DNA of 64,000 bases from Ignavibacteria bacterium (lineage in GTDB: Bacteria; Bacteroidota; Ignavibacteria; Tepidaquicellales; Tepidaquicellaceae). The stretch spans positions 291,546-355,545 of the forward strand of contig JADJMZ010000007.1 of NCBI GenBank assembly GCA_016709315.1, written 5' to 3'. The notes under the pieces were generated by a model, which saw nothing but the letters and a program-made list of their open reading frames with translations, did not search any database and was not told the origin of the DNA. The position numbers were made by a program, and so were the translations under genes. Shown piece after piece: positions 22,462 to 54,143 of this stretch. Position 1 is the stretch's first letter; every line of letters starts with the position of its first letter.

Positions 22462-24090
22462 TTATGGAGTTATTGCGCTGACAGTATTGCTTGAATTATT
22501 ATCAACAATACTTACATCTATTGCATCAACAAATTTATCTCCCGATAAATCTGTATTAACATAACCAGTTACTGAATTATTCGCATCATTATCGATACTG
22601 CTGACATCGGAAGCATCTACAGATCCGTCCTGATCCACATCACCGCTGTATGCTGCAAATCTTACAGGAGAGAAATCCACCTGTTTCATGTTGCTTCCGT
22701 ACGCCTTGCTTAATGAATCACTGAAATTGTAACTTCCAAAATCCATTGGATTATAAATTTCTCCGCTTAACCTGCTCCAGGTTTCTATACTGTTTCTGTG
22801 TTTTATTACTACATAATATGTTCCCGAAGGAGCCGTATTAAATTTAAAACTGCCGGTGAAACTTACTGAATCTATTAACGCTTTTGATGAATCTATTATA
22901 TTGTATGGTGAACTTGCAGATCTGAGAAACGCTCTTACAGTGTCTTTTGCATTCAGACAGTTTGTTGAAGAATTATAAAATCCTTCAGGTACTGCGCTGA
23001 TATTGAAATTTGTTTTCAGCACATATAGTCCGGTTGATCTGTCAGATGCAATAATCTTTCCGGAAGGAAACATATACACTCCCCAGCATCCTTCGTAATT
23101 GCCAAAATCATTGGAAGGGTATGTGTCATAATAAGCTACTTCTGTCGGAACTGACGGATTTGAGATGTCAACTAATCTCACGCCTGCAGAGTAATGTGCT
23201 ACCAGAGCATACTTCCCGTAAATCTCAACATTGTGCACTATTGCACTTGTGATACCTGTCGGCTGCCAGTTCGTTACGTAAGTTATATTTCCCAGATCCT
23301 CTATGTTCCATATCTTCAATGCTCTCGGCAAATTTCCAATTTCATCAGTTACCAGAATATGTTTTCTGTCATCAGTCACTGCAGTGTTATGCGGACCTGA
23401 GTTTGCAATATTTATGAAAGATGTTATTCCTGTAAGCGTGTTTTTATTTGCTGCATTTATTATGCTTACCTTGCTTATATAAACATTTGCAGCATAGATT
23501 GTGTCATTTACAATTCTGCAGTCATGAATATAATCAACATTATATCCTCCCCTCTTCACCGGTGTTTCGGGATTTACAGTAAGATCAAGTACTGTAACTC
23601 CACTGCCGAATCCCGAATTGCAGCCGTTCAGATAAAGATAAGGACCGGATTGTGAAATGCTGTGAGTGTAAGTATGTCCGGCAGGAACGAATTTTTTAAC
23701 ATAATGTACTGAATCAGGTAAATACTGAAGATCAACAATCTGTATGCCGCTGTTTCGTACTTCCGAAACTAAATATGCGTAATGGGAATAAGTTTTCATT
23801 TCACGCCAGAGATTATTCGGATCCCCGGGAGAAGTGGAAGCAACAAATCCAACCTCATGTATGTTTGAAGCATCTGTAATATCTACGAACTGTGTTCCGT
23901 CAAAAGTTCCTAGTATTGCATATTCTCTTCCGTCGGGTGCTTTATAACCCCACAATGCAGAATATGGTGTTGCATGAGTATTTACATTTGCAAGGAGATA
24001 CATATTTTTATTCCCAAGCTGTGCTTCTGAATTACCTGTTATGGAAAATGTAATAAAGATTGCAAAAAATGCAAGAAGTAGTTTCTTCAT
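22462..24090 (-). CDS. Secreted LVIVD-repeat beta-propeller protein with KHRN-IETWS module and dockerin-like C-terminus
   Basis: Signal peptide. LVIVD-type strands (IQIVDLQ, VTVLDLT, VRLVDIS, LYVLK). C-terminal GTYYVVIKHRNSIETWS, then GDVDQDGSVDASDVSSIDND ... DLSGDKFVDAIDVSIVDNN. Confidence 0.8.
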   Translation of the reverse strand: MKKLLLAFFAIFITFSITGNSEAQLGNKNMYLLANVNTHATPYSALWGYKAPDGREYAILGTFDGTQFVDITDASNIHEVGFVASTSPGDPNNLWREMKTYSHYAYLVSEVRNSGIQIVDLQYLPDSVHYVKKFVPAGHTYTHSISQSGPYLYLNGCNSGFGSGVTVLDLTVNPETPVKRGGYNVDYIHDCRIVNDTIYAANVYISKVSIINAANKNTLTGITSFINIANSGPHNTAVTDDRKHILVTDEIGNLPRALKIWNIEDLGNITYVTNWQPTGITSAIVHNVEIYGKYALVAHYSAGVRLVDISNPSVPTEVAYYDTYPSNDFGNYEGCWGVYMFPSGKIIASDRSTGLYVLKTNFNISAVPEGFYNSSTNCLNAKDTVRAFLRSASSPYNIIDSSKALIDSVSFTGSFKFNTAPSGTYYVVIKHRNSIETWSRLSGEIYNPMDFGSYNFSDSLSKAYGSNMKQVDFSPVRFAAYSGDVDQDGSVDASDVSSIDNDANNSVTGYVNTDLSGDKFVDAIDVSIVDNNSSNTVSAITP

Positions 24091-24337
24091 GTTTTTTGAT
24101 TAGTTTAATTTCTAAATATTTTTTGGAATTTATTGCTTGGGGTTCAGCAAAGTATAAAAATATTTAGTTAGTTACACTATATTTTATAAAGCATATTTAA
24201 AGGAGGATTGCGGCAGATCTATGAAGGATCTGTAATGCAGGTTAAGGATTGATATGCAAGGAAAATTTATGTCTCCATGCATAAAATTGTTCGTTTAAAA
24301 AAAACTTTTTAAGAGCTCATGCATTTGTTTTCTAAAT

Positions 24338-24370
24338 ATAAAAAAAGGACCGGATCACTGACCCGGTCCT
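24338..24370 (-). terminator. Rho-independent terminator (second of two in tandem)
   Basis: Minus strand: ggaccgg gtcagtgat ccggtcc followed by ttttttt. Confidence 0.6.
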
Positions 24371-24587: not shown

Positions 24588-27140
24588 TTATGGTTTTGAT
24601 ACCAATATTCCTATTGTTGCATTGTTGTCAATTATTGAAAGATCCTGAGCATCTACAAAATTATCACCTGTTACATCTTCACTAACATAACCGCTTAATC
24701 CAATTACTGCTGCATTATCACCTAAGCTCAGATCTGAACCGTCTATTGCATCGTCCTGATTAATATCTCCGCTGTAATTGCAGTATCTGCCGAATGTTAA
24801 TGCCATATTGTTTCCGTATGCCTGTGTTGCTGCGCTTGTGAAATCATAATTATAATTTCCGCCGGCTGTCATTGCTATCGGCGCTGCGCTCCATGTTTCC
24901 ATTGAATTTCTGTGTTTAACTACTATATAGTATGAACCTGCAGGTGCAGTCGGGAATTCGAAATATCCGTATCCGACACCTGTTGTAAGTGTTGCATTTG
25001 CTGTTGCAACGAGATTATATGGAGAAGTCGAACTCCTTAACTCTGCAGTAACTACATCGCTGATCTGGGTTGTACCGTTCCAGAATCCTTCAATTCCAAC
25101 ATAAAGATTTGCTGAAATCAATGTTGAAGTCTCATACTTTCTTGCTACCTGATAAGAACCGTTTCTGTCAGAAATAGTGAACCATACATTCCTGTTTGGA
25201 TAATTAACATCAACAGTTGTTGAGAATCCCGGGTTTGTTGAAGTCCAGTTCAGACCGCCGTTGGTTGTCCTTGACATTGTTCCGCCGGCTGTGCTTATAA
25301 CACCGTCATTGATATTTAGCCATTTTGATCTGAAGACAGTCAGTGACTGCATGCTACCAAGTCCTGTAGAAATATCTGTCCAGGTAGTTCCAGCATCTGT
25401 ACTTCTTATTATAGTATTCATTGTGTCTACGGCACCGTTGTTTCCCGAACCGTGCATAAATAATACATCTTTATTTAATACAAACATATTGCTGAAGCTT
25501 AAAGCAGTGACAGGTGAACTTGTATTCTTTGTCCAGTTAGCTCCGCCGTTTGATGTAAACCAGAGTCCGCCTGTCTGACTTCCGACTGCATATCCTGTAT
25601 TTGCATTTGTCATCTGTATGCTTGTAACACCGCCATTAGGGCTGCCCTGCAATGTCTGTTGTGTCCAGGTAACTCCGCCATCAGTTGTCTTAGCTATCAT
25701 AGCAGGTGTGAAAGGACTATTTATACCTCCTATCCATCCTGTATTTACATCAACAAAATTAACTGTGTTAATTTGATATGTATTGATCGGCGCAGGCGGA
25801 GATTGAAGTACCCAGGTAACGCCTCCGTCTGTTGTTTTAGATAAAGAAACAGCAGCAGCACCTCCCCCTATCCATCCTGTTTGTGAATTTATCATTTGAG
25901 TAGCAAGAATCTGTCTGGTGTGTGAAGTTGTTTGAGAACTCCAGTTTGTACCACCGTTAGTTGAATAAAGCATTGTTCCGGATGCTCCTATCCATATATT
26001 TCCTGTTGGCGATTCTACAAACATACTCTGATATACCGAGTTAGTTGGTAATACAGAGTAATTTTTATTCCTCCATGTAGCTCCGCCGTCATTACTGAGA
26101 TTAACAATTCCACTTGTACCGACTACAGCCCAGTCAAGTCCGTTTATATCAAGTCCGTAAATAATGCTTGATGCCGGCTGATTTACATTACTTCCGTCAA
26201 AAAAGTTTATAGCAGTCCAGGTAACACCGTCATTGGTTGATTTGTAAATTTCTGTATAAGCGCCTGCCAGATATAAAGTACTTGTTGAACTTATATATTT
26301 TATTTTTCTTTGACCGACAGTAGCAGGAGGATTTGATTGTGTCCATGTTGTACCGCCATCTGTTGTATATGCAAAATAATTTCCGTTTCCGCTGACGTAT
26401 CCGGTATTGGCATCCTTAAAATAAATGTCAGTCGGAGTCGCAGCTGTTCCGGGTAAAGTCCAGACTTTCCATGCTGAATCGCCGCCCGGTTTATGATAAT
26501 AAATTTTTCTTGAAGTATTTGAAGCGATAAAAATATTACTTGTATCAAGAGCAAATACAGCATTATTGCTTGTTGACGGAAGTATCGGGCTGAATGACTG
26601 ATCCTGCCATGTTAATCCTCCGTCGGTAGTTTTAAAAAATCTTGCTTTGCCATTACCTGTTAAATATCCTGTATTTGCATCAATGAAATAAAAACTGTTA
26701 ACTGTTCCGCCTGTATCATTATACTCTACATAATTGAATGTATTTCCGCCGTCTGTAGTTCTTGAGATATATCCTTTAGGAACCGGATAACCGGTAATAA
26801 CAGAAAGTGATTGTCCTGCGACATATCCTGTATTTCCATCAAAGAACCAACCTGTATTAAGATCTCTTTTGGCTAAACCGCCTGTACCAGGCGTATTATC
26901 AGGAGATCCTGCAGAATTATTAACTGACCATGTATCACCACCGTCAGCTGATTTCATGAAAATACCTCTGCCGCCTACTGCAAAAATATTTGATGCATCG
27001 AAGATATTTACCCATTTAAGAGTTTGTCCTGCCGGCTGTCCGTTAAGCCAGTACCAGCCGTTCACATCCTGCTGAGAATAGGAATTTAAAACTCCGTTCA
27101 GCAGCATTACAAAAGCAAAAAGAATAACTTTGATTTTCAT
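24588..27140 (-). CDS. Secreted Ycf48/sortilin-like BNR multi-propeller protein with KHRN module and dockerin-like C-terminus
   Basis: Signal peptide. More than ten Asp-box-like repeats (SADGGDTW, TTDGGLTW, TTDGGTTW, STNDGVTW, SNDGGATW, TTDGGVTW and others). C-terminal GSYYIVVKHRNSMETWS, then GDINQDDAIDGSDLSLGDN ... DVTGDNFVDAQDLSIIDNN. Confidence 0.82.
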   Translation of the reverse strand: MKIKVILFAFVMLLNGVLNSYSQQDVNGWYWLNGQPAGQTLKWVNIFDASNIFAVGGRGIFMKSADGGDTWSVNNSAGSPDNTPGTGGLAKRDLNTGWFFDGNTGYVAGQSLSVITGYPVPKGYISRTTDGGNTFNYVEYNDTGGTVNSFYFIDANTGYLTGNGKARFFKTTDGGLTWQDQSFSPILPSTSNNAVFALDTSNIFIASNTSRKIYYHKPGGDSAWKVWTLPGTAATPTDIYFKDANTGYVSGNGNYFAYTTDGGTTWTQSNPPATVGQRKIKYISSTSTLYLAGAYTEIYKSTNDGVTWTAINFFDGSNVNQPASSIIYGLDINGLDWAVVGTSGIVNLSNDGGATWRNKNYSVLPTNSVYQSMFVESPTGNIWIGASGTMLYSTNGGTNWSSQTTSHTRQILATQMINSQTGWIGGGAAAVSLSKTTDGGVTWVLQSPPAPINTYQINTVNFVDVNTGWIGGINSPFTPAMIAKTTDGGVTWTQQTLQGSPNGGVTSIQMTNANTGYAVGSQTGGLWFTSNGGANWTKNTSSPVTALSFSNMFVLNKDVLFMHGSGNNGAVDTMNTIIRSTDAGTTWTDISTGLGSMQSLTVFRSKWLNINDGVISTAGGTMSRTTNGGLNWTSTNPGFSTTVDVNYPNRNVWFTISDRNGSYQVARKYETSTLISANLYVGIEGFWNGTTQISDVVTAELRSSTSPYNLVATANATLTTGVGYGYFEFPTAPAGSYYIVVKHRNSMETWSAAPIAMTAGGNYNYDFTSAATQAYGNNMALTFGRYCNYSGDINQDDAIDGSDLSLGDNAAVIGLSGYVSEDVTGDNFVDAQDLSIIDNNATIGILVSKP

Positions 27141-27331: not shown

Positions 27332-28804
27332 ATGGCAAATATTAATAATAAGCTGCTCTTTTTTATAAGATCACTTACAGAATCCGAATTAAATGAGTTC
27401 AGAAAATTCATCATTTCTCCTTTATATACTTCGGGAAGGAATTATGATACTCTCTTAAATGAAATTATAAAATTCAACAGCAAAGAAAGCAGCAGATTAA
27501 CAGTTCAGGACTTGTATTCAAAATTGTATCCCGGAAAAACATTTAATCCGCAGACTATAAAAAACCGCTTTTCCGAACTTCTTAAGCTAGGTGAAGAATT
27601 TCTTGTCTACAGAAAAATTCAGGACAGTCCCGCTGAGAAAGACAAACTGCTTCTTAGTTCCTACCTTGACAGAAAAATGTATAAATTCCTTGACAGTAAA
27701 CTGCAGAAAGAAATTTTCGAATTATCTTCAGCTCCTGATGATATTAAAAAATTTGAAAATTTATTTTCCCTTCAGGAAATGAGTATCAGGTCGCTTGGAG
27801 AAAAGAAAAAATTCGATGCCTATTTTCAAAAATTCTTTGAAAATACTTTGCTATCTACTTCCATATTTCTTAATAATCTGTTCACTAACGGCATAGAATA
27901 TAAGCAGCAGGAATATCTTAACAGAAAATATGAATTTAATTTTGTCCTTGAGATTCTGAAAGATATGAATCTTGCGAAAGTAATGAAGAAATGTCACAGT
28001 TCGGATCTGAAGATTCTTAAGATTGTGTCGATGAATTATAATCTGTACAAAGCCTATGAAAATATTAATAATGAGGATAATTATTTTGAAGCAAGAAAGA
28101 TATTTCATGAGCTTCATGATTCTCTGAGTAATGAATATAAACTCCAGCTTTATATGATCTTCATATACTTTTGCACAAGAAAGCAGAATCAGGGAATCAA
28201 TAAATATTACAATGAGCTGTTTAAACTGTTTAATGAGAAACTTGATTCAGGTTTTCACAGTGACTTCAGTCAGAATATTTATCCGCTTAGCAGTTTCAGA
28301 GATTATGTGTTTGTCGGGATTGAAGTAAATAAACTCAGCTGGGTAGATGACTTTCTGAAAAAGTATTCTGTTCTTCTGCCGGAAGACGTCAGAGATAATG
28401 AGGTCAATATTGCCAATGCAAAACTCTTCATCGCAAGAAAGAAATATCAGAATGCGCTCAGTATTATATCCGGTGTCAAGCCATCGAATTTTCTGCATTA
28501 TATTGATGTCTCTCTTATCAAACTGATAAGTTATTATGAACTCGGCGAATATGAAGATGCTTTTACTCTTATTGACAGGACAAGTCACTATATGAGAAAC
28601 CACAAGGAAATACCAAAATCCCACATGGTGAATTTCACAGGGTTTATAAAATTTCTCCATTTGCTTCTTAATGCTGCTACAGATACTAAGGTAAAAGATC
28701 AGGCATTTCTTTTTAACGAACTTAATAAATATAAATTGATTTCAAAACGGGACTGGCTGATTGAAAAGATATCTGAACTCAATAAACAAAAAAAGGCCGT
28801 CTGA
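27332..28804 (+). CDS. Hypothetical all-helical cytoplasmic protein (TPR-like?), function unknown
   Basis: 490-aa ORF with normal codon usage, no signal peptide and no recognised motif. Divergent from the 24588-27140 gene. Confidence 0.7.
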   Translation: MANINNKLLFFIRSLTESELNEFRKFIISPLYTSGRNYDTLLNEIIKFNSKESSRLTVQDLYSKLYPGKTFNPQTIKNRFSELLKLGEEFLVYRKIQDSPAEKDKLLLSSYLDRKMYKFLDSKLQKEIFELSSAPDDIKKFENLFSLQEMSIRSLGEKKKFDAYFQKFFENTLLSTSIFLNNLFTNGIEYKQQEYLNRKYEFNFVLEILKDMNLAKVMKKCHSSDLKILKIVSMNYNLYKAYENINNEDNYFEARKIFHELHDSLSNEYKLQLYMIFIYFCTRKQNQGINKYYNELFKLFNEKLDSGFHSDFSQNIYPLSSFRDYVFVGIEVNKLSWVDDFLKKYSVLLPEDVRDNEVNIANAKLFIARKKYQNALSIISGVKPSNFLHYIDVSLIKLISYYELGEYEDAFTLIDRTSHYMRNHKEIPKSHMVNFTGFIKFLHLLLNAATDTKVKDQAFLFNELNKYKLISKRDWLIEKISELNKQKKAV

Positions 28805-28920: not shown

Positions 28921-29650
28921 ATATTCGCAGATGAAGAATGTTGAAAAATTCTTCTGCGGAAATTGCTCTTTGCGAATTTAATTTTTTCACACAGACATTC
29001 GCAGATGAAGAATATTAAATAATTTCATCAGCGTAAATCTGCGAATCACATCTGCGTAAATCTGCGAGAATTTCTCTTTGTGATTATGATTTATTTCACG
29101 CAGATATTCGCAGATGAAGAATATATTGAAATACCATCAGCGTAAATCTGCGAATCACATCTGCGTAAATCTGCGAGAATTTCTCTTTGCGATTATGATT
29201 TATTTCACGCAGATATTCGCAGATAAAAAATATTTTAAAATACCATCAGCGTAAATCTGCGAGAATTTCTCTTTGCGATTAAGATTTATTTCACGCAGAC
29301 ATTCGCAGATAAAAAATATTTTAAAATACCATCAGCGCAAATCTGCGAATCACATCTGCGTAAATCTGCGAGAATATCTCTTTACGATTATGATTTATTT
29401 CACGCAGATATTCGCAGATAAAGAATATTTTAAAATACCATCAGCGCAAATCTGCGAATCATATCTGCGTAAATCTGCGAGAATTTCTCTTTGCGATTAA
29501 GATTTATTTCACGCAGATATTCGCAGATAAAGAATATATTGAAATACCATCAGCGTAAATCTGCGAATCACATCTGCGTTCTTCTGCGAGAATTGCTCTT
29601 TGCGATTAAGATTTTTTTCACACAGATATTCGCAGATAAAAAATGTTTAA
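28921..29650. repeat. Tandem array of a 109-bp unit (six units plus partial ends; one unit is 86 bp)
   Basis: The unit marker tcacRcaga recurs at 28987, 29096, 29205, 29291, 29400, 29509 and 29618. The spacings are 109, 109, 86, 109, 109 and 109. Units are near-identical throughout. Confidence 0.95.
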
Positions 29651-30178: not shown

Positions 30179-33100
30179 TTATTTAAGAAGAATCATCCTT
30201 CTTGTTTCCGTATAATCGCCTGATGTTAATTTATAAAAATACATTCCGCTTGAAAGATCTGCTCCGTTTAAAGTAACTGAATATCTTCCTGCATCCAGTT
30301 TCATGCTGATTAATGTAATAACTTCTTTTCCCGTCAGATCATAAACTTTAATCGTGACGTAATTTGATACCGGTAATTCATAATTGATCTTTGTTGACGG
30401 ATTGAAAGGATTTGGATAATTCTGAGATAACGAATATTTTACCGGAACAGTGGCAATATTTTCCGGATCATCACCTGTAGGAATTTCATCAACAAATTTT
30501 ATCAGTCCGTTAAGTATTCTTTTTACTGAAAATGGATAAGGAACATCATTAGCCGGTCTTATAGATTCCACATCAAGCGCCATCACAGCTACATTATAAG
30601 TAGCAGATACTCTTCCTATTGAATTCATTGAGTCAGCGAACAGTCTGTATTTGTATAGATTGAATGTCTGTGAAGATGGCAGTGAAACTGATCTTTTAAT
30701 TACATCTGATGAAGGACCGTAAGTGCTGTCCGTAAGATTAGTATTTATCGAAATTCCCGTAATACCTCTTCCGCCTACTCCCGGTCTGTCTGCTACATAC
30801 TGGTATCCGCACATGCTTCGTGCAAATGCAGAATCATAATACGGGGAAGCTGATCTGTCTATCTGATAACCAATATCTTCTGAAATTATTATAAGTTTTG
30901 ATTTATTGATTCCTGTTCCTGACTGCAGATAAGTTTTAAGCGAATCTTTTATTTTATTTGACATAACAGATGAACCTTCTCCAAGCAGCATAACTTTTTT
31001 ATAACCTCTGAAAGAAACTGCATCTGTAGCGGTAACTCCTTTTCTGTTATAAAGATCATATGTAATCGAGAGATTATTCAGGTTAGCCATTACCGAGTCT
31101 CTTGAAATTCTGCAGTTTACATTTGTCGAATCATATAATACGAGAATGTCACCTTTTCCTTTTCTTTTAAAAGTGATCGCATTATTCTGAGTTGCTTTTA
31201 CAGAATCAAATCCGTTATAAGCCCAGACAGACCACTGCCCTGCAAGAGAATCACCCGGATTTACACCGGCCGAAGCCAGCGCTGCATCCAGTTCATTATT
31301 TGGAATTGAAAAAGATGAATCAATGCCGGATAAACCAGATGTTCTGATTAATTTTACAACAGTTATTGAAGGCGAACCGAATTTCCATTTATATGTTACA
31401 CCCGGTCCGGATGTTGACCAGTTAAAATTAATATTTGTAAAATTAAAAGCCGATGTTTCATATCTTACTCCTGCTGCAGGTGTGTTTAAATTAAATGCTG
31501 ACAATACCGGTACGCCTCTTTTCAGAGTAATTGCTCTCGGACCGTTAGCAGCTTTTAAAGAATCGAGAGTAACATTGTTTCTGAATGCCCATACATCCCA
31601 TTGTCCCACAAGCGAATCGCCAACTGCTACTCCGAGTCCGGCAAGTATATTATCAAGCTGTCCGGATGAGAATGAGATTGCATTTAAAGTCGAAGGAATA
31701 GTTATCTTTCTGACACTTGCTGTAGGATTACCGAATATCCATTTATAGGAAGCTGTTGCAGTAGAAGTATCCCAGTTAAAATTATAATTCAATGTATAAT
31801 TAGGATAAGTAACTATTCGCGCTCCCGCAGAAGGACTTGAAAGATTATAGTTATTCAGCGGAGTTAAATTAATGTTAACCTTCGCAGTAGTCGCCTGATA
31901 AATACCTGTATAATCATCACACCAGTAAGGCCAGAGAGTTCCGTTTCCCGAAGTTATTCCTATATAATCACCCTGATATCCTGCTGCAAGTCCCGGGATA
32001 GATTTAGGTTTGAATTTATGATCCGAAACCAGAATATCATTATAAGTTTCACCTCCGTCAAAAGATCTTGATACATAAACTTCAGCAGAATCATTTGTAG
32101 GAGTATTTCTGGTATCATAATAAACTATATTCACCGCGCCCTGATCATCAACATTGACCGTTCCGAAATACTGATACTTACCATTTCCGGGAGCATCCTG
32201 ATTTACTCTTTTCTTTGTCCAGGTATTCCCTCCATCTGTTGATCTGTGAAGAATAACATCGGATACATCAGTTGCAGGCGCAATATTTTTTTCTGAAGTA
32301 GTAACATATATCCATCCGCTTCGCGGACCTGTAGTTCTGTCGACTGCGATTCTTGGAAAACCGTTGGCTCTGATACCGTTCAAAAAAGCTCCGTTAAAAT
32401 CTCTGATCCCGTTCATATTGCTTGCATTACCTCTTGAGACTGCCCAGTTTACTCCTCCGTTAGTTGATTTAGCAAATCCGAGAGAATCTTCAATAAGAGC
32501 GCCTCCGACGGATGACTGATTTGCCCAGACTACATATACTTCTCCGTTTGGTCCGACTTTGATATCACAACCCTGATTGACATTATTGCCGAGAGCATTA
32601 CCGACAACAGCTTCATTTGACCATGATACTCCGCTGTTTGTTGAATAAGACATTACAACGTCTGCATAATTGGTGCCTCCGAACTCTGTGAAAACAGTAT
32701 AAACTCTTCCGTAATAAGGACTTACAGGTGAATCATCTGTAGTCGTAAAATTCTTATCTGAGCTTGCAGAGGATCCGGGAATATTTACATTTGCAGACCA
32801 TACAATTCCATTATCAGTAGAGTAACTCATTCCAATGTTTCCTGAAGTACTGATATATGACATGTGAAATCGTCCGTCTTTATCAATTGCAGGACCGGGA
32901 TCTCCGGAATTAAAAGTGCCGTTGTTTAAAGTATCGCTTCCATACCAAGTAAGACCTCCGTCAGTAGTTACATAAACACCAGTGGAAAATGTAGTTGCTC
33001 CTCTGTACGTATTTGCTGAAGCAAGCATTATCAGCGGATTTGTCGGATGTCTTGTAATAGGTGTTTCAGACTGAGTTCCGAAACTCGGGTGAACAAGAAA

Positions 33101-43893: not shown

Positions 43894-46740
43894 TTAATGA
43901 CTTCCGAATAAAGAATTGCTTTTTACTTTGTCTTTATTTTCAAAGACTCCGTCAGAAGGAATTCTTTTGTTTAAATTATATTTTTCATTCAGTAAATCTT
44001 TTTGCTGTTTTTCAATAGCAAGTTTTTCCTTCGCAGCTGATTTCATTTCTTCCAGCAGTTTCTTTCCGGATTCATACTTCATTCTTTCCGAATCAGATTT
44101 GAATTCCGGAACATTATCGTTTTCAACAGGATTAATTGTTGGAGCAGCTCCCGGAGGTCCTACCATTGATACACCGACATTGTTATCCACTACGGATACA
44201 TCAGATGCATCAACAAAGGTATCTCCGTTAACATCTTCTACTACATATCCTGATGCTCCTGAAAATGCACCGTTATCCACAAGACTCAGATCGGAACCGT
44301 CTATGGTCTCGTCCTGATTTATATCACCGCTGTACATGCCATAGAAAGGCTGAGGATCAATAAGCTTCTCACTGCTGAGATATGTCTGTGTCAGAATGTT
44401 AATAAAATCTCTGTTAAAAGATGAACCTCTTACATAAGCAAATCCTCCTGCAGCACTCCATGTCTTGATAGTATTTCTGTGCTTGAATGCAAGATAATAA
44501 TTACCGTTAAGGGCTTTTGGAAAAACAGGACTTCCTAAACAACCACCCGATGCCAATAATGAAATTGATGAATCAACAGCTATGTTTGGAAAATCTGTTC
44601 TGTAAAGATAAGCTCTGATTGTATCAGGTATTGCCTGAGGAAATGGTGTAGCTCTGTAGAATCCTTCTGGAACACAGCATAAACCATTTGCTACAGCATT
44701 TGGCAGAGCCTTTATGCAGATATTATCCAGATACAGATTATTTCCGAATCCGCTTATGGCTCTCATTCTTATCCTGTTTGTTCCTAACGGCAAATTATAA
44801 ATTTTTGATGCCCATTGGTTATTAGCAGGAACAAATGACAAAGTAGTAGCAGGTGCAGTATTTAATTCACCGCTTCCGTCAGCTTTACCAAGAAGTGTGG
44901 CAAGAGTAGAATATGAAGTTCCTCCGTTTGTTGAAGACTGAACTATAAGTGTATCCGGTCCGAATGACGGCGAGTAAGGTGCATATGCCTCATCAAAAGT
45001 TACATAATAACCTGCCGGTACCGGTTGAAAATCTGTGATCAGAGACTGATCAGTTCCCACATTAGCATTATAAAAATTAAACATCGCTGATCCTGTTCCT
45101 CCGCCATATGCGCTTTGAGTTGTTCTGTTCCAGTATTGCGATCCTGTATAAAGCAATGAATAATAATCCGGTGTAAATGCGGTTGAAGAAAAATCCTGAC
45201 ATCCCGGACAGGGATTGGATGGAGTAACTTCAACTTTTGCAGTCCATGCATTATAAACTCCTGAACTATTGGACATCCAGTAAGGCCAGATTCTCTGATT
45301 TCCGTTAACTGGATTTCCTTCTATAAGAGCTGATGTTATTCCGATATAATCTCCCGCATACTGAGTATTAACTCCTGCTACTCCGGTAGGTCCGTGTTTA
45401 AATTTATTTCCGACTTTTACATCCGTAAATGTAGCACCGCCGTCTGTAGACCTGGAAAGATAAACTTCTGAAGAGTCATTCGTAGCTGTATTTCTTGTAT
45501 CATAATACACAACATTTACTCCGCCCGATTCATCTACTCTGACTGCTGACATATATTGTTTTTTTCCGTTACCGAATGCATCCTGATTTACTCTGACTCC
45601 CGGAAGCCAGGAAGTACCGCCATTTGAAGATCTGTAAAGAACTATATCAGACACATCACCTGCTATACCTGGATTTTTTTCACCGACTACAACGTATATC
45701 CAGCCGGCTCTCGGACCGCATGTTCTGTCAACATCTATTCTCGGGAATCCTGCAACTCTTATCCCGTTATGCATATTGAAGGTTCTGTTTCCGTTTACAT
45801 TTGCAGCATGGTTAGTTGCAATCGTCCAGCTTACTCCTCCGTCTGTGGATTTTGCAAATCCAAGAGAATCTTCTGTAAAGGGACTAATGTCAGCATCAGC
45901 GCAAGTCCAAACAACATATACTTCTCCGTTTGGTCCGCATTTAACATCGGCACCCTGATGAAAGTAATTTGAACCAGCTACTGCAGCAGGACTTATTAGA
46001 GCTTCAGATGACCAGCTTACTCCGCCATTAGTTGTATATGAACCTACTAATCTGTATAAATTAGCGCCGGCGAATTCTGTATAGACTGTATAACTTCTTC
46101 CGTAAAAAGCGCTTGAAGGAGCATCGTCAGTTGCGGAAAAATTCTTATCAGAACTTGATGTCGAACCCGGAATTGTAACCGTAGTTGACCAGTTGACTCC
46201 GTTATTGGTTGACCAGGATGCACCCATCTGACCAGATGTAGTAATATATGAATTAATGAATCTTCCGTTTCTATCGATCAACGGACCGGGATCTCCGAAA
46301 TTAAATACAGGAGTTCCTGCAGATGAAAATAATGTATCATTTCCAAACCAGGATGTACCTCCGTCTGTTGTTACATACCAGCCGGTACTGAAGCTTCCTC
46401 CTCTTGATGTGTTTGCTGATGCGAACATTATAAGTGGATTAGTCGGATGCCGTGTGATAGGAACTTCAGTCTGATGACCCGCTGAAATCGGATGTACCCT
46501 GAAAGCTGAATTTACAACTAACACACCCATCGGTGTATTATAATATGTTGGTTCATTAATTACAGGACCAGAATAATCCTGCTGCGGCAAAGGAGTATAT
46601 TCCTGAAATACATTTCCGGAATTGATTCTTGAGCTGGGATCCGGATTCCATCTCGGACTGTCATCTCCTGATGAAAAACCCGAATAAATGAGATAAGAAA
46701 ATGTTAAAAGAACAGTGAGTAAAAAAAGTTTAAATTTCAT
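43894..46740 (-). CDS. Secreted BNR/Asp-box propeller + jelly-roll protein with KHRN module, dockerin-like repeats and charged tail
   Basis: Signal peptide. PITRHPTNPLIMFASANT, TTDGGTSW, STNNGVNW, TTNGGVSW, STDGGVSW, SSNGGTSW, STDGGATF. CQDFSSTAFTP...SGFGNNLYLDNICIK. GNYYLAFKHRNTIKTWS. GDINQDETIDGSDLSLVDN ... DVNGDTFVDASDVSVVDNN. PPGAAP followed by a tail. Confidence 0.85.
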   Translation of the reverse strand: MKFKLFLLTVLLTFSYLIYSGFSSGDDSPRWNPDPSSRINSGNVFQEYTPLPQQDYSGPVINEPTYYNTPMGVLVVNSAFRVHPISAGHQTEVPITRHPTNPLIMFASANTSRGGSFSTGWYVTTDGGTSWFGNDTLFSSAGTPVFNFGDPGPLIDRNGRFINSYITTSGQMGASWSTNNGVNWSTTVTIPGSTSSSDKNFSATDDAPSSAFYGRSYTVYTEFAGANLYRLVGSYTTNGGVSWSSEALISPAAVAGSNYFHQGADVKCGPNGEVYVVWTCADADISPFTEDSLGFAKSTDGGVSWTIATNHAANVNGNRTFNMHNGIRVAGFPRIDVDRTCGPRAGWIYVVVGEKNPGIAGDVSDIVLYRSSNGGTSWLPGVRVNQDAFGNGKKQYMSAVRVDESGGVNVVYYDTRNTATNDSSEVYLSRSTDGGATFTDVKVGNKFKHGPTGVAGVNTQYAGDYIGITSALIEGNPVNGNQRIWPYWMSNSSGVYNAWTAKVEVTPSNPCPGCQDFSSTAFTPDYYSLLYTGSQYWNRTTQSAYGGGTGSAMFNFYNANVGTDQSLITDFQPVPAGYYVTFDEAYAPYSPSFGPDTLIVQSSTNGGTSYSTLATLLGKADGSGELNTAPATTLSFVPANNQWASKIYNLPLGTNRIRMRAISGFGNNLYLDNICIKALPNAVANGLCCVPEGFYRATPFPQAIPDTIRAYLYRTDFPNIAVDSSISLLASGGCLGSPVFPKALNGNYYLAFKHRNTIKTWSAAGGFAYVRGSSFNRDFINILTQTYLSSEKLIDPQPFYGMYSGDINQDETIDGSDLSLVDNGAFSGASGYVVEDVNGDTFVDASDVSVVDNNVGVSMVGPPGAAPTINPVENDNVPEFKSDSERMKYESGKKLLEEMKSAAKEKLAIEKQQKDLLNEKYNLNKRIPSDGVFENKDKVKSNSLFGSH

Positions 46741-46857: not shown

Positions 46858-49667
46858 TTATCTGCAGCCTAATCCTGTTATTCCGTTTGGATCATATAAC
46901 TTGCTTGTTTCAGCAGCTCCTTTTGAAGGGATTCTGTTCTTGAAATTATATTTTGCATTCAGAAGATCTCTTTCCTGATTTTGCTTAAAGAGTATTTCCT
47001 GATTTAATGAATTTGCTCTCATTCCTGTTTCATATTTCTGTCTTTCAGCTTCTGTTTTGAATTCAGGCATTTGATCATTTTCATTCGGATTAATGGTTGG
47101 CGCTCCACCCGGAGGTCCTACCATTGTTACTCCCTGGTTGTTATCTACAATTGCAACATCATCAGCATCAACAAAATTATCTCCGGTTACATCTTCTACA
47201 ACATAACCTGACAATCCTGCAAATGCACCATTATCAACTAAGCTTAGATCTGAACCGTCTATGATCTCGTCCTGAGTGATATCACCGCCGTACATACCGT
47301 AGTATGGAGGTATAGATTTTTCACTGTTTAGATATGTTCCCGCTAAGTTATTTATTAAATCCAGTGTGAATGAACTGCCTCTTGTGTAAGCAAATCCGCC
47401 TGCTGTGCTCCAGGTTTTAATAGTGTTCCTGTGCTTAAATCCGAGATAATATGTACCGTTAATGCATGTGTGAATGTAGCACCTCCGTTTATACATCCGA
47501 AGTTTGTCAGGATTTTTACTACAGAATCAACTGCTACATTCGGGAAATCAGTTCTGTAAAGATATATTCTTAATGTATCCGGTATGACACTCGTTGGACT
47601 TGGTCTGTAAAATCCTTCAGGCATTGCGCATAATGTATTGGCTACAGGAGATGCAAGTGACTGCAGACAGATATTATCCAGATAAAGATTGTTTCCGAAT
47701 CCGCTCACAGCTTTGAATCTTATTTTGTCTGTTCCTGCAGGCAAAGCATAGTTCATTGGCGCCCACTGACCGCCTGATGTAGGTGAAAAATCATTGATCC
47801 TTGCTACAGTGTTCAGCGGAGCTCCTCCGTTTTCATTACCCCATAACCTGGCAAGATTTGTATATGTTGCGCCGCCGTTATTTGAAACTTCGATTATCAG
47901 AGAATCTGTATTTGTAAACCAAGGTGAATATGATCTGTCAAATGTTAAATATGTTCCTGCTGCTGTTGCTGCAAATTTATATGTTACAAGTGACTGGGAA
48001 GTACCTGCTGCAGCATTCCAGAAATCGAACTTTGCCGAACCTGTGCCCGATGCATAAGCGCTCGGTGTCTGTCTTGACCAGTATTGCGTTCCTGTAAATT
48101 CCAGAAGCATATCGCTTGGAGGGAATGTAGCTGAGGAAAAATCCTGACATATTGTACTTTTTGATATGTCGAGAGCTCCTGCCCAGCAGCTTGGTTTGTT
48201 GGAGCCAACCGGCGCTGCTTTGTCATCCATCCATACTGCTACGACTTTTCCGATACTCTGTGTGATACCAATGTAATCACCCATATATCCGCCGCCGAAT
48301 GGTGACATTTGCTTTGGTTTGAAATTGTGATCAGCGATCTTTACATCTCCCCATGTCGTGCCGCCGTCAAGTGATCTGGAAATATATACTGAACATGAAT
48401 CTCCTACAGAAGGGAAATTTCTGTTGTCATAATATACAACATTTACTCCGCCATCTGAATCAACACATACAGCCGGGAAGAACTGAACTTTTCCGTTGCT
48501 TACTGCATCCTGATTTACTCTGATACCGCCTGACCAAGTTGTTCCGCCGTCGGATGACCTGTGAAGAACAACGTCAGCGTCTGTTCCTGCCGGTGCCAGA
48601 TTTATCTGACTGACAACTATGTAGATCCAGCCGTTTCTTACTCCGCCGGTTTTATCTACTGCTATTCTCGGGAAACCGTTTGTTCTGATTCCCCAACCGT
48701 TAAATGAATTGGATCTGCTTCCGTTATCATCAAAAATGTTCTCTGTTGCAGTATAAGATGTTCCGCCGTTCACTGATTTAGCAAATCCTACAAAATCTTC
48801 AGTGAATGGTGATGAGGTTATACCTGCTGTCCAGGTAATATAAACATCTCCGTTAGGACCCACTGCCATATCATGACCCTGCGCATTATGTCCTGCAGGT
48901 GTTGCGTTTACTACTAAAGGTGCTGACCATGATACTCCTGAATTTAATGTTCTGGAAGTTCTTCCGTTTGCAGGAGCTGTTGAAAAACTTGTCCACGCAA
49001 AATAAGATTGCCCGTAATAAGGACTTGTCGGAGAATCATCAGTGGTTCCGAGATTCTTATCTGCATTTGCATCTGCAGATACCTGAACAGTTGTTGACCA
49101 GGTTGCACCGTTGTTAATTGACCTGTTGGCTCCCATTCCTGTTACTGCTCCGAAATTGGAAGCACTCGTAAGATGTGTAAAAAGGAAAACACCGTTTTTG
49201 TCAATCATCGGACCCGGATCTCCTCTTTGATCAAGTGTACTTGCGCCTGGAAGTGTCTCTGTTCCCGTCCAGGTTACTCCGCCGTCTAATGAAACATAAA
49301 CTCCGGAATTAATTTGTCCTGTGCTGAAGACATAAGCATTTGAAGATGCAAACAGAATGTTCCTGTTAGCAGGGCTGCTTACGATCGGTACTTCAGATTG
49401 TGAAAAATCGTTTGTTGCAGATGGATGAACCCTGACATTCGGATAAGTTACCATGACGCCGATTGGAGTAATGGTTGTCTGCGGCTCTGTAGTGAATTGT
49501 CTTATTTCAGAATAAACTGTCGGCAGTGGTTTATAATCTCCTGAGAGATTTACCACAGTCCTTGGATCCTGATTCCATCTCGGGTCATTATCTCCACCCG
49601 AAAATCCGGAATATGTGATCCATGAAGCTGTAAGAATTACAGCAAATAACAATAGCTTTAACTTCAT
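46858..49667 (-). pseudogene. BNR propeller + jelly-roll + KHRN/dockerin-like paralog carrying a single -1 frameshift near 47459-47462
   Basis: ORFs 47355-49667 and 46858-47496 overlap. Together they reproduce the full architecture of the 43894-46740 paralog. At the junction the minus strand reads gcattaacggtaca, where ...THALNGTYYLGFKHRNTIKTWS would need gcattaaacggtaca. Confidence 0.8.
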
Positions 49668-49826: not shown

Positions 49827-52800
49827 TTATTTATTACTGTCATTTGTTCTCTTTTTGTCATCGGTATTTCTAAGAACATTATTCTTTTTTATTGCTTTAG
49901 AACCTAATGAATTTTTTGATTTAATAAAAGTATTTAATTCGGGTCCTGCTCCCGGAGGTGTTTCAGCAAAAATGCCTACATTGTTATCAACAATTGAAAG
50001 ATCTGTTGCATCCACAAAATAATCTCCGGTCAGATCTTCCGGAACGTATCCTGTAACCCCAATAGTACTGGCGTTATCTACAAAGCTCAGATCAGATGCA
50101 TCTATTGTTCTGTCATCGTTCACATCTCCGCTGTAGTTACAATACTTGGTTCCGACAAGCTTTAGATTACTGTTGTATGCCTGAGTAACCGCAGTTGTGA
50201 AATTGTAACTGAAAGGTGATCCTGAAGTATAGGATTCTCCTCCTGCCTTGCTCCATGTTTCTATGCCGTTCCTTGTCTTTACCTGCAGATAGTAAGTTCC
50301 TGAAGGCGCATTTGCAAAAAGAAATGATCCTGCAAATGTGACTGAATCAATTACTGATTTTGCAGAATCTACAATACTGTATGGCGGAGAAATATTTCTA
50401 AGATATACTCTTGATGTATCCCGAAGATTTAGTTTATTCAGACCCGTATTATAAAATCCCTGTATTATCATTGTAATGGTTGAAGGTACTGAAAGTCCTA
50501 CATTCAATCTAACTTTTACATCCTTGGCTGGAGTTACCGGATCATTTGATGAAATTCTCAGTTTGCCTGTGTAAGTTCCGGCTGCAAGTGTGTTGTTGAA
50601 AAATTTTACATCAACATTCTGATTACTGCTCGGTGCTACAGTTCCTGCTAAAGGATTTTCTGTGACCCATGGAAGTCCGCCCTTTTCAATTAATATTGCA
50701 AGATTATCATGAACGTAATTATTGTTGAATACCATCTGCAATCCGTCAGTGCTTGCAGAGTTTTCATTACCGATCGTTGCTGAATTCAATGGTGTTAAGG
50801 AAGTTAGATATTGAATATTTATTTTTCCGTTGTAATTCAGAATTATTTCAAATGTATAAGGTCCCCCTGTACTGTAGTGAGGAACATCTTTATACTCAAT
50901 AATGAATCTGTTATTTACAGCGTCATTGTAATAATAAATGGTTCCTGATGTTCTGACATCAAGATCATCCCAGAATCCGTAAATTGCATTGTTAGGTTCT
51001 ACTGCATCCGGTAATGCTGTATTTGAGTATGCAGCATTTGTTGAAGCTACATCAAATGAAACCCAGCCGTTTGTACATATCTTTAGCTGTGAATAACTGT
51101 TTCCGTAATATGAAAATGGTGTCGGAAGCGCAACCACAACTGATCCGTCGTCCCCAGTTCCGTTTGTCCATGTTGTTATTGCAGTTCCGGTTCCTGATAT
51201 ATCCACCCAGTTAAAAGCAGGTCCTCCCGGCTCGTCACTGTCTTTCCAGATGTAACCGAATACATCCGGTCCGCCTGAGCCGTCTGTTACATCCGGTCCG
51301 TGATATTTATCCCTGGCATCTTTGGTCTGATTCACCATTTCTGCAATTTGTTCTTTGCTAAAATTATTTTGCTGTTTAATATTATCAAATACTGCAGTTA
51401 GTTCTGTCAGAGACCAGTTCAATGCTGATCCTCCGGTATTTCCTATAAGTAGATTTCTTGTAGTTGAATCATTTCCTAAAGGCATATTTACAACAATTGA
51501 ATCATAAGAAGATGTTACTACCGGCGGAGGAGGTGGAGGTATTCCTGCAACTTTACAGATGCTGTCAATGTAAAGATTGTTTCCGAATCCGCTTTTCGCT
51601 GTAAATTTTATCATGTTAGTTCCTACAGGCAATGAGAAAGTTTTTGTCAGCCATTGTGAACTGGTCGGAGTAAACGCTGAACTAAGTGCAGTCGTAGTGT
51701 TTAATGTATTACTGTTACCTATAATAGCAGTAGTATTTCCGTACATTCTTACCAGAGATGAATATGTAGTTCCTGCGTTTGTAGATGATTCTATTATCAA
51801 TGAATCTGTAGAACCTGTATATGGAGCATAAGCATTATGAAATTTAAGCGAATCACCGTTTACTGATGATCCGAATGCAAGTGTTATTATTGATTCTATC
51901 GTTCCGCTGGGTGAACTCCAGAAATCATATTTTGCCGACCCTGCTCCAATCCCGTAACTGCTTACTGCATCCCGGGTCCAGTATGATCCTGTCGGGCTTA
52001 GAGTCCATAAATCCGGAGGGAACGTTGCTGAAGTAAATCCTTCGCATAGTGTTTGTTCTATTATTGTGAAATTGTATAACGCAGTTGAATCTTTGTGATG
52101 AGCTAAAGAATTATCCTGCGCAAATATTTTGTAATAAATTACATCTCCTAATACAACATCAGCATTAATTGAATTGAAAGCTGCGCTGAAACTGCTTCCG
52201 CTTGTGTTTATTAGTTTGAACTGTTTGGTCGGAGTAGGTGTATTCTTATACCATTTTACCCATGCTGAGTCAATTCCAAGATTGTCAGTTACAGTAGCTC
52301 CGACTGTTGAAGGCCAGTATGGCTTGGCTTGATTTCCTAATGGTGTATGCGTAATAACAGGATTTGTATTGTCTGTAGAAGCTATAAATGAATTCAAAAC
52401 TAAAGGTGCTCCTGAAGGTGATGTTGAAATCCTGTTCAGACTGTCTGAAGTTTTTATATAATATCTGTAAGTAGCTGCTGAGCCATTTGCAGGGATATTC
52501 GCTGTCCAGTTCGTTCCGCTTGAATTTGTCATAAGCAGACTGTCTGTTATTAAAGGATTATTTCTTGACCAGTATAATTTTGTCAGAGACGGATTAATAC
52601 CAGAACCTGAAGGAGTGATTACACAGTTTACTGCATAATTTCCTGTAAGCTGTTCCGTATTTGGCAATGGCGTATGTGTAATTGAAGGTCCGATATCTAT
52701 TGATGCTATCCATGCCTGATAAGAACCGGTTATGTCATCAGCCCAGTAAGGCCAGATCTTTCCGTTACCGGAAGTTATTCCTATATAATCTCCCTGATAA

Positions 52801-54143
52801 CCTGTAGCTAATCCGGATATTGGTTTTGGCATGAATTTATGATCGGAAACCAAAATTTCTGACCACGTGCTTCCTCCGTCAATTGATCTTGACACATAAA
52901 TTTGTGCAGAATCATTTGTCGGAATGTTCCGCGTATCATAATAATTTATATTTACTCCGCCGTATTCATCAACTCTGACTGAAGGCATATACTGATATTT
53001 TCCGTTTCCGGCTGCATCCTGATTCACTCTTGATGATGTCCAGGTAGATCCGCTGTTTGTTGACCGGTGAAGTATTACATCTGATACATCTGTTGCAGGA
53101 GCAACTGTTTTTTCGGCTGTAACCACATAGATCCATCCGTTTCTTGCTCCGCCTGTTCTGTCAACATCAATTCTGGGAAATCCGTTTGTTCTTATGCTGT
53201 TGAACATACTTGCTGACCTGATACCGTTCATGTTATCAGCACTGTTTGTTGAAACTGCCCAGGTAACTCCGCCGTCAAGCGATTTTGCAAATCCAAGGGA
53301 ATCTTCAGTTGAATTTTGACCGTTAGTCGTACAGTTTGCCCAGACTACATAAACTTCTCCATTAGGTCCGATCCTTACATCACAACCCTGATGATGATGA
53401 CCTGTAGAAGGCGGAGGACTGACAGGTGCAATTGTTGACCAGCTTACTCCGCCATTTGTAGTAAATGAACTTACTATCCTGTTTGTATATGTTCCTGCGA
53501 ATTCTGTATAAACAGTATAACTTCTTCCGTAATATGCGCTTGAAGGTGCGTCATCAGTTCCTGATAAATTTTTATCTGCGCTTGTTGATGCTCCTGGATA
53601 AGTTACTGTCGGAGCCCAGTTTATACCGTTGTTTGAAGAATAACTTGCACCCATTGAACCGGTTGTAGTAATATAAGACATTAAAAAAATTCCGTTCTTG
53701 TCAATCATCGGACCCGGATCTCCATAACTAAATCCGCCGTTATTCAAAGTATCGCTCCCAAACCATGATACTCCACCGTTAGTTGTTACATATACTCCGG
53801 TGCTGAATGTAGAACCCCCTCTGAATGTATTGGCTGAAGCAAGCATTATCAGCTGATTGGAAGGATGTCTGGTAATTGGAACTTCGCTCTGAGTACCGGC
53901 GCTCGGATGGACTCTGAAGTTGGGTGAAACTGCATAAACACCGTTTGGTGTGGAAATGTATCGGGTCGATGTGCTGAAAACAACATTATCATTCTGAGGT
54001 AATGGAACATATTCACTTTGCTGAATCATCCTTGTCATTCGGGAATCAATATTCCATTTTTCGGGTCTGTCCTGTGACTTCTGACCCATGAACAAAATTA
54101 AACTTAATGATAAAACTGGCAGAAGAAATAAAAATTTTTTCAT
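49827..54143 (-). CDS. Giant (1438 aa) secreted BNR propeller + Ig-like + jelly-roll + NIDO-like insert protein with KTRN-IETWS module and dockerin-like repeats
   Basis: Signal peptide. Collinear with the 39565-42903 paralog, for example GPSITHTPLPNTEQLTGNYAVNCVITPSGSGINPSLTKL. About 356 extra aa lie after a PPPPP linker. GTYYLQVKTRNGIETWS. GDVNDDRTIDASDLSFVDN ... DLTGDYFVDATDLSIVDNN. PPGAGP followed by a basic tail. Confidence 0.85.
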   Translation of the reverse strand: MKKFLFLLPVLSLSLILFMGQKSQDRPEKWNIDSRMTRMIQQSEYVPLPQNDNVVFSTSTRYISTPNGVYAVSPNFRVHPSAGTQSEVPITRHPSNQLIMLASANTFRGGSTFSTGVYVTTNGGVSWFGSDTLNNGGFSYGDPGPMIDKNGIFLMSYITTTGSMGASYSSNNGINWAPTVTYPGASTSADKNLSGTDDAPSSAYYGRSYTVYTEFAGTYTNRIVSSFTTNGGVSWSTIAPVSPPPSTGHHHQGCDVRIGPNGEVYVVWANCTTNGQNSTEDSLGFAKSLDGGVTWAVSTNSADNMNGIRSASMFNSIRTNGFPRIDVDRTGGARNGWIYVVTAEKTVAPATDVSDVILHRSTNSGSTWTSSRVNQDAAGNGKYQYMPSVRVDEYGGVNINYYDTRNIPTNDSAQIYVSRSIDGGSTWSEILVSDHKFMPKPISGLATGYQGDYIGITSGNGKIWPYWADDITGSYQAWIASIDIGPSITHTPLPNTEQLTGNYAVNCVITPSGSGINPSLTKLYWSRNNPLITDSLLMTNSSGTNWTANIPANGSAATYRYYIKTSDSLNRISTSPSGAPLVLNSFIASTDNTNPVITHTPLGNQAKPYWPSTVGATVTDNLGIDSAWVKWYKNTPTPTKQFKLINTSGSSFSAAFNSINADVVLGDVIYYKIFAQDNSLAHHKDSTALYNFTIIEQTLCEGFTSATFPPDLWTLSPTGSYWTRDAVSSYGIGAGSAKYDFWSSPSGTIESIITLAFGSSVNGDSLKFHNAYAPYTGSTDSLIIESSTNAGTTYSSLVRMYGNTTAIIGNSNTLNTTTALSSAFTPTSSQWLTKTFSLPVGTNMIKFTAKSGFGNNLYIDSICKVAGIPPPPPPVVTSSYDSIVVNMPLGNDSTTRNLLIGNTGGSALNWSLTELTAVFDNIKQQNNFSKEQIAEMVNQTKDARDKYHGPDVTDGSGGPDVFGYIWKDSDEPGGPAFNWVDISGTGTAITTWTNGTGDDGSVVVALPTPFSYYGNSYSQLKICTNGWVSFDVASTNAAYSNTALPDAVEPNNAIYGFWDDLDVRTSGTIYYYNDAVNNRFIIEYKDVPHYSTGGPYTFEIILNYNGKINIQYLTSLTPLNSATIGNENSASTDGLQMVFNNNYVHDNLAILIEKGGLPWVTENPLAGTVAPSSNQNVDVKFFNNTLAAGTYTGKLRISSNDPVTPAKDVKVRLNVGLSVPSTITMIIQGFYNTGLNKLNLRDTSRVYLRNISPPYSIVDSAKSVIDSVTFAGSFLFANAPSGTYYLQVKTRNGIETWSKAGGESYTSGSPFSYNFTTAVTQAYNSNLKLVGTKYCNYSGDVNDDRTIDASDLSFVDNASTIGVTGYVPEDLTGDYFVDATDLSIVDNNVGIFAETPPGAGPELNTFIKSKNSLGSKAIKKNNVLRNTDDKKRTNDSNK

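Follow-up and report, generated by a model that had tools for sequence, protein, structure and literature searches.

We analysed a 64,000-nucleotide window (the whole stretch of DNA studied here) of the Ignavibacteria bacterium contig JADJMZ010000007.1 and detected a common C-terminal module of ~170 residues in eight minus-strand genes within positions 22462-54143, according to the open reading frame (ORF) listing and its translation. The window itself is chromosomal DNA of an ordinary kind: its GC content is ~36%, and genes of central metabolism lie on both sides. We call the module XDoc-like, after the dyads of an X-module and a dockerin, and distinguish its N-terminal sandwich half from its C-terminal dockerin half. 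The first-pass annotation, made from the sequence alone, had claimed eight genes with such a module, and the alignment of the eight tails agrees, with 34 invariant columns and a mean column identity of 62%. The quoted motifs (G-x-YY, KHRN-x-IETWS, QAYGNN and two Asp-rich loops) were all found in the window tails. The tails match far beyond chance, because the seven intact copies have profile E-values of 1e-26 to 1e-44 for both module halves; the sandwich half of copy 7, truncated by a frameshift, has an E-value of 4e-15.

The N-terminal heads of the eight proteins are mutually unrelated by Pfam and NCBIfam scans, which identified the LVIVD/choice-of-anchor B family (TIGR04312, E 1e-56) in gene 22462, a Ycf48-like BNR propeller in gene 24588, an M14 carboxypeptidase (E 9e-57) in gene 36724 and BNR_2-type propellers in the remaining five, in agreement with the heads assigned earlier. 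A propeller paralogue, 30179-33325, is 52-63% identical to the module-bearing paralogues over its first ~500 residues and carries a type-A C-terminal domain (CTD) of type IX secretion (the T9SS; Por_Secre_tail). It is 52% identical to gene 39565 up to residue ~500, a stretch that takes in the signal peptide, and the two diverge completely beyond it. Four further T9SS tails were detected in 1368-3110, 54473-55849, 59257-60516 and 63428-64000 (the last gene runs past the window end), giving the five type-A tails that had been noted for the window. The feature coordinates are collected in Table 1.

Table 1. Coordinates of the XDoc-like modules and of two other features in the window
Feature	Coordinates	Strand	Parts	Gene and context
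XDoc-like module 1	22465..22989	-	sandwich 22657-22989, dockerin 22465-22653	true C-terminus of LVIVD/choice-of-anchor-B gene 22462-24090
XDoc-like module 2	24591..25094	-	sandwich 24780-25094, dockerin 24591-24779	true C-terminus of Ycf48-like BNR gene 24588-27140
XDoc-like module 3	33685..34464	-	sandwich 34144-34464, dockerin 33946-34128; PPGAAP hinge and 87-residue K/E/N-rich extension 33685-33945	gene 33682-36690
XDoc-like module 4	36727..37242	-	sandwich 36916-37242, dockerin 36727-36915	true C-terminus of M14 carboxypeptidase gene 36724-39372
XDoc-like module 5	39568..40257	-	sandwich 39931-40257, dockerin 39742-39930; 58-residue extension 39568-39741	BNR-propeller gene 39565-42903
XDoc-like module 6	43897..44670	-	sandwich 44347-44670, dockerin 44155-44337; 86-residue extension 43897-44154	gene 43894-46740
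XDoc-like module 7	46861..47624	-	module 47113-47624; 84-residue extension 46861-47112	frameshifted at ~47460
XDoc-like module 8	49830..50465	-	sandwich 50139-50465, dockerin 49956-50138; 42-residue extension 49830-49955	1438-residue BNR-propeller gene 49827-54143
T9SS type-A CTD (Por_Secre_tail)	30182..30418	-		C-terminus of propeller paralogue 30179-33325
490-residue all-helical TPR-like protein, probably cytoplasmic	27332..28804	+		divergent from module gene 24588-27140

The earlier statement that the genes end with the module is accurate for 22462, 24588 and 36724, each of which closes on ...P-stop. It does not hold for the other five, where the module is followed by a PPGA-type hinge and an extension of 42-87 residues rich in Lys, Glu and Asn. 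PPGA(A)P opens the extension in these five proteins, and a semi-conserved stretch, PEFK[TS][ED][AS][ED]R[QM]KYE, was observed in the three longest ones (those behind modules 3, 6 and 7). Similar K/E/N-rich extensions occur on ~16% of the relatives, mostly those with BNR-propeller heads. Gene 7 spans 46858-49667 with its frame restored; a 1-nt deletion (TTAAC, where a paralogue implies TTAAAC) splits it into ORFs 46858-47496 and 47355-49667, and reflects either a pseudogene or an assembly indel.

All eight translated proteins start with a Sec signal-peptide-like sequence. In six genes (22462, 24588, 33682, 36724, 39565 and 49827) the predicted signal peptide is followed by Gln, with the ends …SEA/Q, …SYS/Q, …SFS/Q, …TFS/Q and …FMG/Q, matching the Bacteroidetes "Q-rule" for signal peptidase I substrates. 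The Gln was considered as a clue to the final location of the proteins and rejected, because the Q-rule does not tell compartments apart (PMC5837995).

The structure prediction proposed in the first-pass annotation was performed for module 4 (the tail of gene 36724) as a 183-residue unit, using an alignment of 75 homologues. The AlphaFold2 model (pLDDT 97.1, pTM 0.90) has ten strands followed by two helices. In the Foldseek comparison with the PDB, ranks 1-10 were all XDoc chains of type II cohesin-dockerin complexes from C. thermocellum and A. cellulolyticus (top entries 4u3s_B, 4wi0_B, 5k39_B, 5m0y_B, 2b59_B, 5g5d_B, 4fl4 and 3kcp), with E-values of 1e-5 to 1e-3, TM-scores of 0.50-0.63 and 182-193 aligned columns, corresponding to the full length; generic transthyretin, CBM20 and Ig sandwiches followed at lower ranks. 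The sandwich is predicted to lie directly N-terminal to the dockerin and to pack on it as one unit, as in XDoc.

The consensus of 154 copies contains the loops DVNQDGxxDxxD and DLTGDxFVDxxD (patterns D-x-N-x-D-G-x-x-D-x-x-D and D-x-T-G-D-x-x-V-D-x-x-D), each followed by a helix, and the two helices (134-145 and 164-175 in the model, one behind each loop) have nearly identical sequences, A-S-D-L-S-x-x-D-N-[DN]-A. This corresponds to the two-repeat dockerin layout, which calls for 12-residue EF-hand-like loops with D or N at positions 1, 3, 5, 9 and 12; the loops are predicted to bind calcium. Pfam recognizes the C-terminal ~55 residues weakly as Dockerin_1 (PF00404, gathering cut-off 22.9 bits): all eight isolated tails match (best E 3.5e-6), full-length scans gave 19.9-26.7 bits in four window proteins and nothing at E<=0.01 in the other four, and 8 of 33 related proteins match at E<=1e-4. 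The PDB sequence search with the tail returned mainly dockerins, plus two weaker unrelated matches. No NCBIfam match to the tail was found, and the sandwich half (~110 N-terminal residues) had no significant match in Pfam or NCBIfam; its sub-threshold Pfam matches are transthyretin-like sandwiches, CarboxypepD_reg, the EMC7 sandwich and Y_Y_Y. The fold and architecture are of a known kind, XDoc, and the sequence family of the sandwich is uncurated. The suggestion that the module is not a described domain is thus valid for the sandwich-half family, but not for the module as a kind, given the ten best PDB matches and Dockerin_1.

The family is large and its distribution is that of a tag. A library profile search (1.84 billion proteins, hits counted as cluster representatives) with the sandwich half detected 4,797 cluster representatives, 2,443 of them at E<=1e-10. 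The two halves are an obligate pair: a dockerin directly follows the sandwich in 144 of the top 146 hits. All source-named homologues are "hypothetical protein" entries of Ignavibacteria or Bacteroidota metagenome-assembled genomes (MAGs). A scan of GTDB species genomes gave 77 loci, which come from 14 genomes and amount to ~1-2% of each; together with the window they make up 798 kb of sampled DNA. The closest of these genomes is "Bacteroidetes bacterium SZAS-88" (80% identity), with locus L035 syntenic with the window. The 77 loci contain 145 module ORFs with one copy apiece, up to 29 of them in the 96 kb sampled from a single MAG. On an Ignavibacteria contig of 1.37 Mb (L078:7585-10924) a reprolysin gene shares 47 nt with the 307-residue module ORF that comes next, apparently a further module gene broken by a frameshift; it lies in a run of T9SS-tailed genes.

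In the loci the module ends the protein exactly, on a conserved Pro, in 114 of 136 complete copies, while 18 have 10-120 residues beyond it; in the library it is terminal in 101 of 144 representatives. Overall, ~70-84% of copies are terminal and ~16-30% have residues beyond the module. Tandem double modules are present among the library proteins. A crude signal-peptide filter was passed by 81 of 108 full-length locus copies. The heads fall into at least 33 unrelated clusters, including FG-GAP, SBBP, M14, M1, reprolysin, endonuclease I, Porphyromonas-type peptidyl-arginine deiminase (PPAD), arylsulfotransferase, GSDH, SASA esterase, metallophosphatase, plastocyanin-like (cupredoxin) and propeller types, and minimal proteins consist of a signal peptide, ~45 residues and the module. 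The tag-like behaviour proposed from the eight window genes is borne out by the number of head clusters, the mostly terminal position, the signal peptides and the heads in common with T9SS-tailed proteins. Literature searches on dockerins and cohesins in Ignavibacteria and on Gram-negative X-modules turned up no description of this module family; on dockerins, the M. roseus genome paper says only that its cellulases lack them.

We detected a genome-specific code in the dockerin helices. Within- and between-genome identity was compared column by column for 144 copies from 15 genomes. The difference is ~0 throughout the sandwich half, and a large within-genome excess was observed at symmetric helix positions, 125/126/129/135 and 155/156/159/165 (module numbering). 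Position 159 has an identity of 0.83 within a genome versus 0.43 between genomes, and position 129 has 0.81 versus 0.43. Most genomes have D/D at positions 129/159, MAG-299 (25/28 and 26/28 copies) and CTOTU2443 have E/E, and MP6IB1 has Y/F; at positions 135/165, F/F is seen in seven genomes and G/S in four, the window's among them. Summed, the excess amounts to 2.34, versus 0.00 +/- 0.09 after the genome labels were shuffled. When orthologous heads from different genomes are compared, each has the helix code of its own genome, so common ancestry of individual paralogues does not account for the code. Cellulosomal dockerins follow their cohesins by means of a genome-specific code repeated in both dockerin halves. 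By this analogy, the symmetric and genome-specific pattern of substitutions indicates that the dockerin helices of all copies in a genome contact one and the same protein receptor.

We consider it probable, on balance, that the tail is a calcium-dependent, non-covalent docking tag, gathering diverse secreted proteins on a common receptor. The tail would be an XDoc-like dyad, in which a ~110-residue beta-sandwich is rigidly packed on a ~60-residue dockerin with two predicted Ca2+-binding loop-helix repeats. The tailed proteins carry Sec signal peptides; the dyad would then take up Ca2+ and fold, either within the cell envelope or extracellularly. Judging by their co-variation, the two symmetric dockerin helices probably form the surface that recognizes the shared receptor protein. 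Through non-covalent docking, many different enzymes and propellers would be held in one place, which is most likely the cell surface or else a scaffold itself fixed to it, for instance by a T9SS CTD.

Several observations weigh against the interpretation of the tail as a docking tag. No cohesin was detected by Pfam in the scanned window ORFs of >=100 residues (which cover all but about a dozen short ORFs inside larger genes of the opposite strand, and include the fragment 46858-47496), as the first-pass annotation had noted for the window. The search for a cohesin-like partner that it had proposed was also negative in the related DNA sampled: Pfam found no cohesin in nine module proteins of 1.4-2.7 thousand residues, which are possible scaffoldins, and phmmer with the CipA cohesin-2 query (equivalent to 1anu) had nothing below E 0.1 in ~0.9 Mb of related DNA. 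These searches covered ~1-2% of each related genome. The identity to solved XDocs in structural alignments is 11-15%, with a root-mean-square deviation (rmsd) of 5-6 Å, and sequence comparison does not show that the sandwich half and clostridial X-modules descend from a common ancestor. The Dockerin_1 scores of 19.9-27.6 bits straddle the cut-off, and several full-length proteins have no match. The docking model does not explain why HRN..ETWS and AYGNN are near-invariant in the sandwich. Finally, the hosts are diderm, and cargo without a T9SS CTD has no demonstrated exit from the periplasm.

No Cohesin was found either among the 25 of 82 Pfam families listed for 69 secreted or CTD-bearing neighbours. 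No sequence homology of the sandwich half to clostridial or ruminococcal X-modules was detected, and the PDB-sequence profile search aligns the dockerin half alone (query 108-164).

The protein encoded by 27332-28804 was considered as a receptor and rejected: it has no signal peptide, it is all-helical and TPR-like, and a distant homologue adjoins a T9SS-tailed gene. Pfam gives it sub-threshold TPR-type matches only, and it has no significant PDB sequence match; its AlphaFold2 model (pLDDT 89) resembles generic TPR/PPR solenoids in Foldseek, with weak NprR-type matches. We detected 34 homologues in the 798 kb (for instance, L013:8051-9517 and L064:3013-4494; range L002-L077), almost always on the opposite strand and adjoining secreted-protein genes: relative to module genes, 14 are divergent and 14 convergent, and 3 are divergent relative to T9SS-tailed genes. 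The protein is more likely cytoplasmic, and the family may be a co-expanded local regulator.

The relation of the module to the T9SS CTD bears on the principal alternative. The 798 kb contain 154 module ORFs and 32 type-A CTD ORFs, with no ORF carrying both. Twelve of the 32 CTD proteins have heads with homologues among the module-bearing ones (identity of up to 63% across 500 residues), so that, as far as sequence tells, the same head family appears with different C-terminal tails, in a "choice of anchor" pattern. Three of 146 library representatives (P0121, P0161 and P0188) have XDoc, a linker and a genuine T9SS type-A CTD, and strict mutual exclusion in one protein therefore does not apply to the sequences compared. 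P0121, of 516 residues, has the order SP-XDoc-XDoc-CTD and no other domain, and looks like a surface-anchored adaptor. The first-pass annotation had regarded the two tails as alternative address labels; the exchange of tails between heads and the absence of ORFs with both agree with this, but the wording is overstated in view of the three combined proteins and the 16-30% of extended copies. Frequent co-occurrence with the T9SS CTD, the outcome it had set against its own proposal, was not seen in these sequences. The XDoc tag is orthogonal to the T9SS signal and is usually found in its place. The combined proteins and the frequent C-terminal extensions suggest a docking unit that can coexist with an export signal rather than a signal of the same type, and this is what the module looks like; its use is not that of an export signal which needs a free C-terminus.

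The tail could instead be an export signal for an outer-membrane machine (a T9SS component, such as a PorV-like shuttle, or another system), constituting a third class of secretion CTD. This would account for the near-exclusive distribution of the module and the type-A CTD, for the same head families bearing either tail and for the usual position of the module at the extreme C-terminus with its conserved Pro; the helix code fits co-evolution with a single-copy machine component equally well, and the cargo would gain a way through the outer membrane where it has no other known one. The T9SS CTD is similar to the module in its C-terminal location on the same protein kinds in the same genomes. 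It differs in fold, an Ig-like 3+4 beta-sandwich (PMC11285876), whereas the last domain of the module is helical. The eight window proteins have no TIGR04183 or PF18962 match in Pfam and NCBIfam scans, and the tail is not assigned to the T9SS type-A sorting domains. The possibility that the sandwich half is a diverged T9SS CTD was tried and rejected, with one weak local CTD-profile match and a probability of 2.8% by hhalign against the local CTD profile. The 16-30% of copies with 10-120 residues after the module also speak against it, a real CTD behind the module and tandem modules are both odd for a signal, and the best structural matches are docking modules. We regard an export signal as unlikely.

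The tail could also be a glycan-binding anchor, with a carbohydrate-binding module (CBM)-like, transthyretin-like or starch-binding-like sandwich attached to lipopolysaccharide or capsule, a calcium half serving for stabilization and no protein receptor. The residues H, R, N, E, T, W and S of KHRNSIETWS, together with AYGNN, are the most conserved of the module (each in >=80-90% of 154 copies), and their make-up is typical of sugar-binding sites, but they could simply form the interface between the two halves. Among the lower Foldseek ranks are the CBM20 of CGTases, a CBM that binds porphyran, a Bacteroides protein with putative carbohydrate binding and transthyretin-like folds, although such sandwich-only matches are weak (E 0.02-0.16); the weak Pfam matches of the sandwich half and the lack of a cohesin also speak for a glycan anchor. 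The genome-specific variation speaks against it: it is symmetric, present only in the dockerin helices and absent from the sandwich, which suggests that the helices are the specificity surface, as in cohesin-dockerin pairs. We regard a glycan anchor as quite improbable. A calcium-dependent stabilizing or self-associating domain without a targeting role, spread by domain shuffling, appears very improbable, although most non-cellulosomal dockerin-like modules have no known function and no partner was found here: the family has thousands of members, dozens per genome on unrelated heads, and the helix surfaces in any one genome evolve together, and neither is easily accounted for unless the copies interact with a common partner.

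The docking tag that we favour can be compared with the known systems. The type II XDoc of C. thermocellum CipA, bound to the SdbA/ScaC cohesins, and that of A. cellulolyticus ScaA (2b59, 5g5d, 5k39, 4u3s) have the same arrangement of a sandwich packed N-terminal to a two-repeat dockerin and the same C-terminal position, with a use as an anchoring plug that is probable for the window tail. Besides the low identity and TM-score and the high rmsd given above, the window family differs in its larger sandwich of ten strands, with invariant motifs of its own. Type II XDocs are found on one or two scaffoldins, while the window family is found on dozens of enzymes and propellers per genome, in diderm Ignavibacteria, with non-cellulolytic cargo and no cohesin found.

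Strongly symmetric dockerin helices, as detected here, are more like those of the type I dual-binding dockerins, and cellulosome dockerins show species-specific recognition. Type I cellulosomal dockerins (PF00404) likewise are C-terminal tags on many secreted enzymes, with duplicated 12-residue predicted calcium loops and helices and with species-specific recognition residues repeated in both halves. The window family differs by its borderline match to PF00404, its very short inter-repeat linker, its constant fusion to the sandwich and its cargo of peptidases, nucleases, PPAD, propellers and cupredoxins rather than carbohydrate-active enzymes.

A cellulosome-like system has been inferred in Ca. 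Stygibacter (Cloacimonadota), also of the diderm FCB group, where signal-peptide enzymes, including peptidases, are reported to have C-terminal dockerins alongside T9SS and a 3,755-residue cohesin scaffoldin to end in a T9SS CTD (PMC8542988). Its cohesins are annotated and its dockerins are ordinary InterPro matches, whereas the window family has an obligate sandwich and no cohesin found, and is far larger. By analogy, a scaffoldin gene like that of Ca. Stygibacter would easily fall outside the sampled DNA. We give a modest chance, somewhat better than that of the export signal, to the stronger proposal that the module belongs to a second large surface-display system of Ignavibacteria beside T9SS, in which an XDoc plug with a genome-specific, two-fold symmetric code would dock dozens of unrelated enzymes on a receptor other than a classical cohesin, or on a CTD-bearing receptor that ferries the docked cargo through the T9SS pore.

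Several other features of the window were observed. A photolyase is apparently split, with the N-terminal DNA_photolyase domain in ORF 9594-9944 and FAD_binding_7 in ORF 10127-11044 (plus strand), ~180 nt apart, possibly due to another frameshift or indel. At 28953-29648 a unit of 86/109 nt is repeated in tandem about six times (87-96% matches), inside the secreted-protein gene cluster and directly upstream of the PD-(D/E)XK (PDDEXK_3) gene 29704-30093. A 21-nt tandem repeat with 10.8 copies was detected at 43308-43530, in the ~1-kb gap between the module genes 39565-42903 and 43894-46740.

Dockerins belong to the textbook picture of Gram-positive cellulosomes, XDoc dyads have been characterised well, and dockerin-like modules have already been described outside cellulosomes. 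Four things are new: a sandwich-plus-dockerin family that is uncurated and thousands strong; its large-scale use to tag non-cellulolytic cargo in Ignavibacteria, which are diderm and have T9SS; the swap relationship of the XDoc tail with T9SS CTDs; and a clear symmetric code, specific to each genome, with which it should be possible to find the receptor. Annotators gain a new informative C-terminal domain, and the helix code is a concrete experimental handle on the receptor. A compact calcium-dependent plug with natural specificity variants could serve designed protein assemblies. The family prompts one to ask by what way cargo lacking a CTD gets out of the periplasm in FCB-group bacteria, and the proposed display system, if true, would mean a new receptor class for dockerins or a new outer-membrane route for such cargo.

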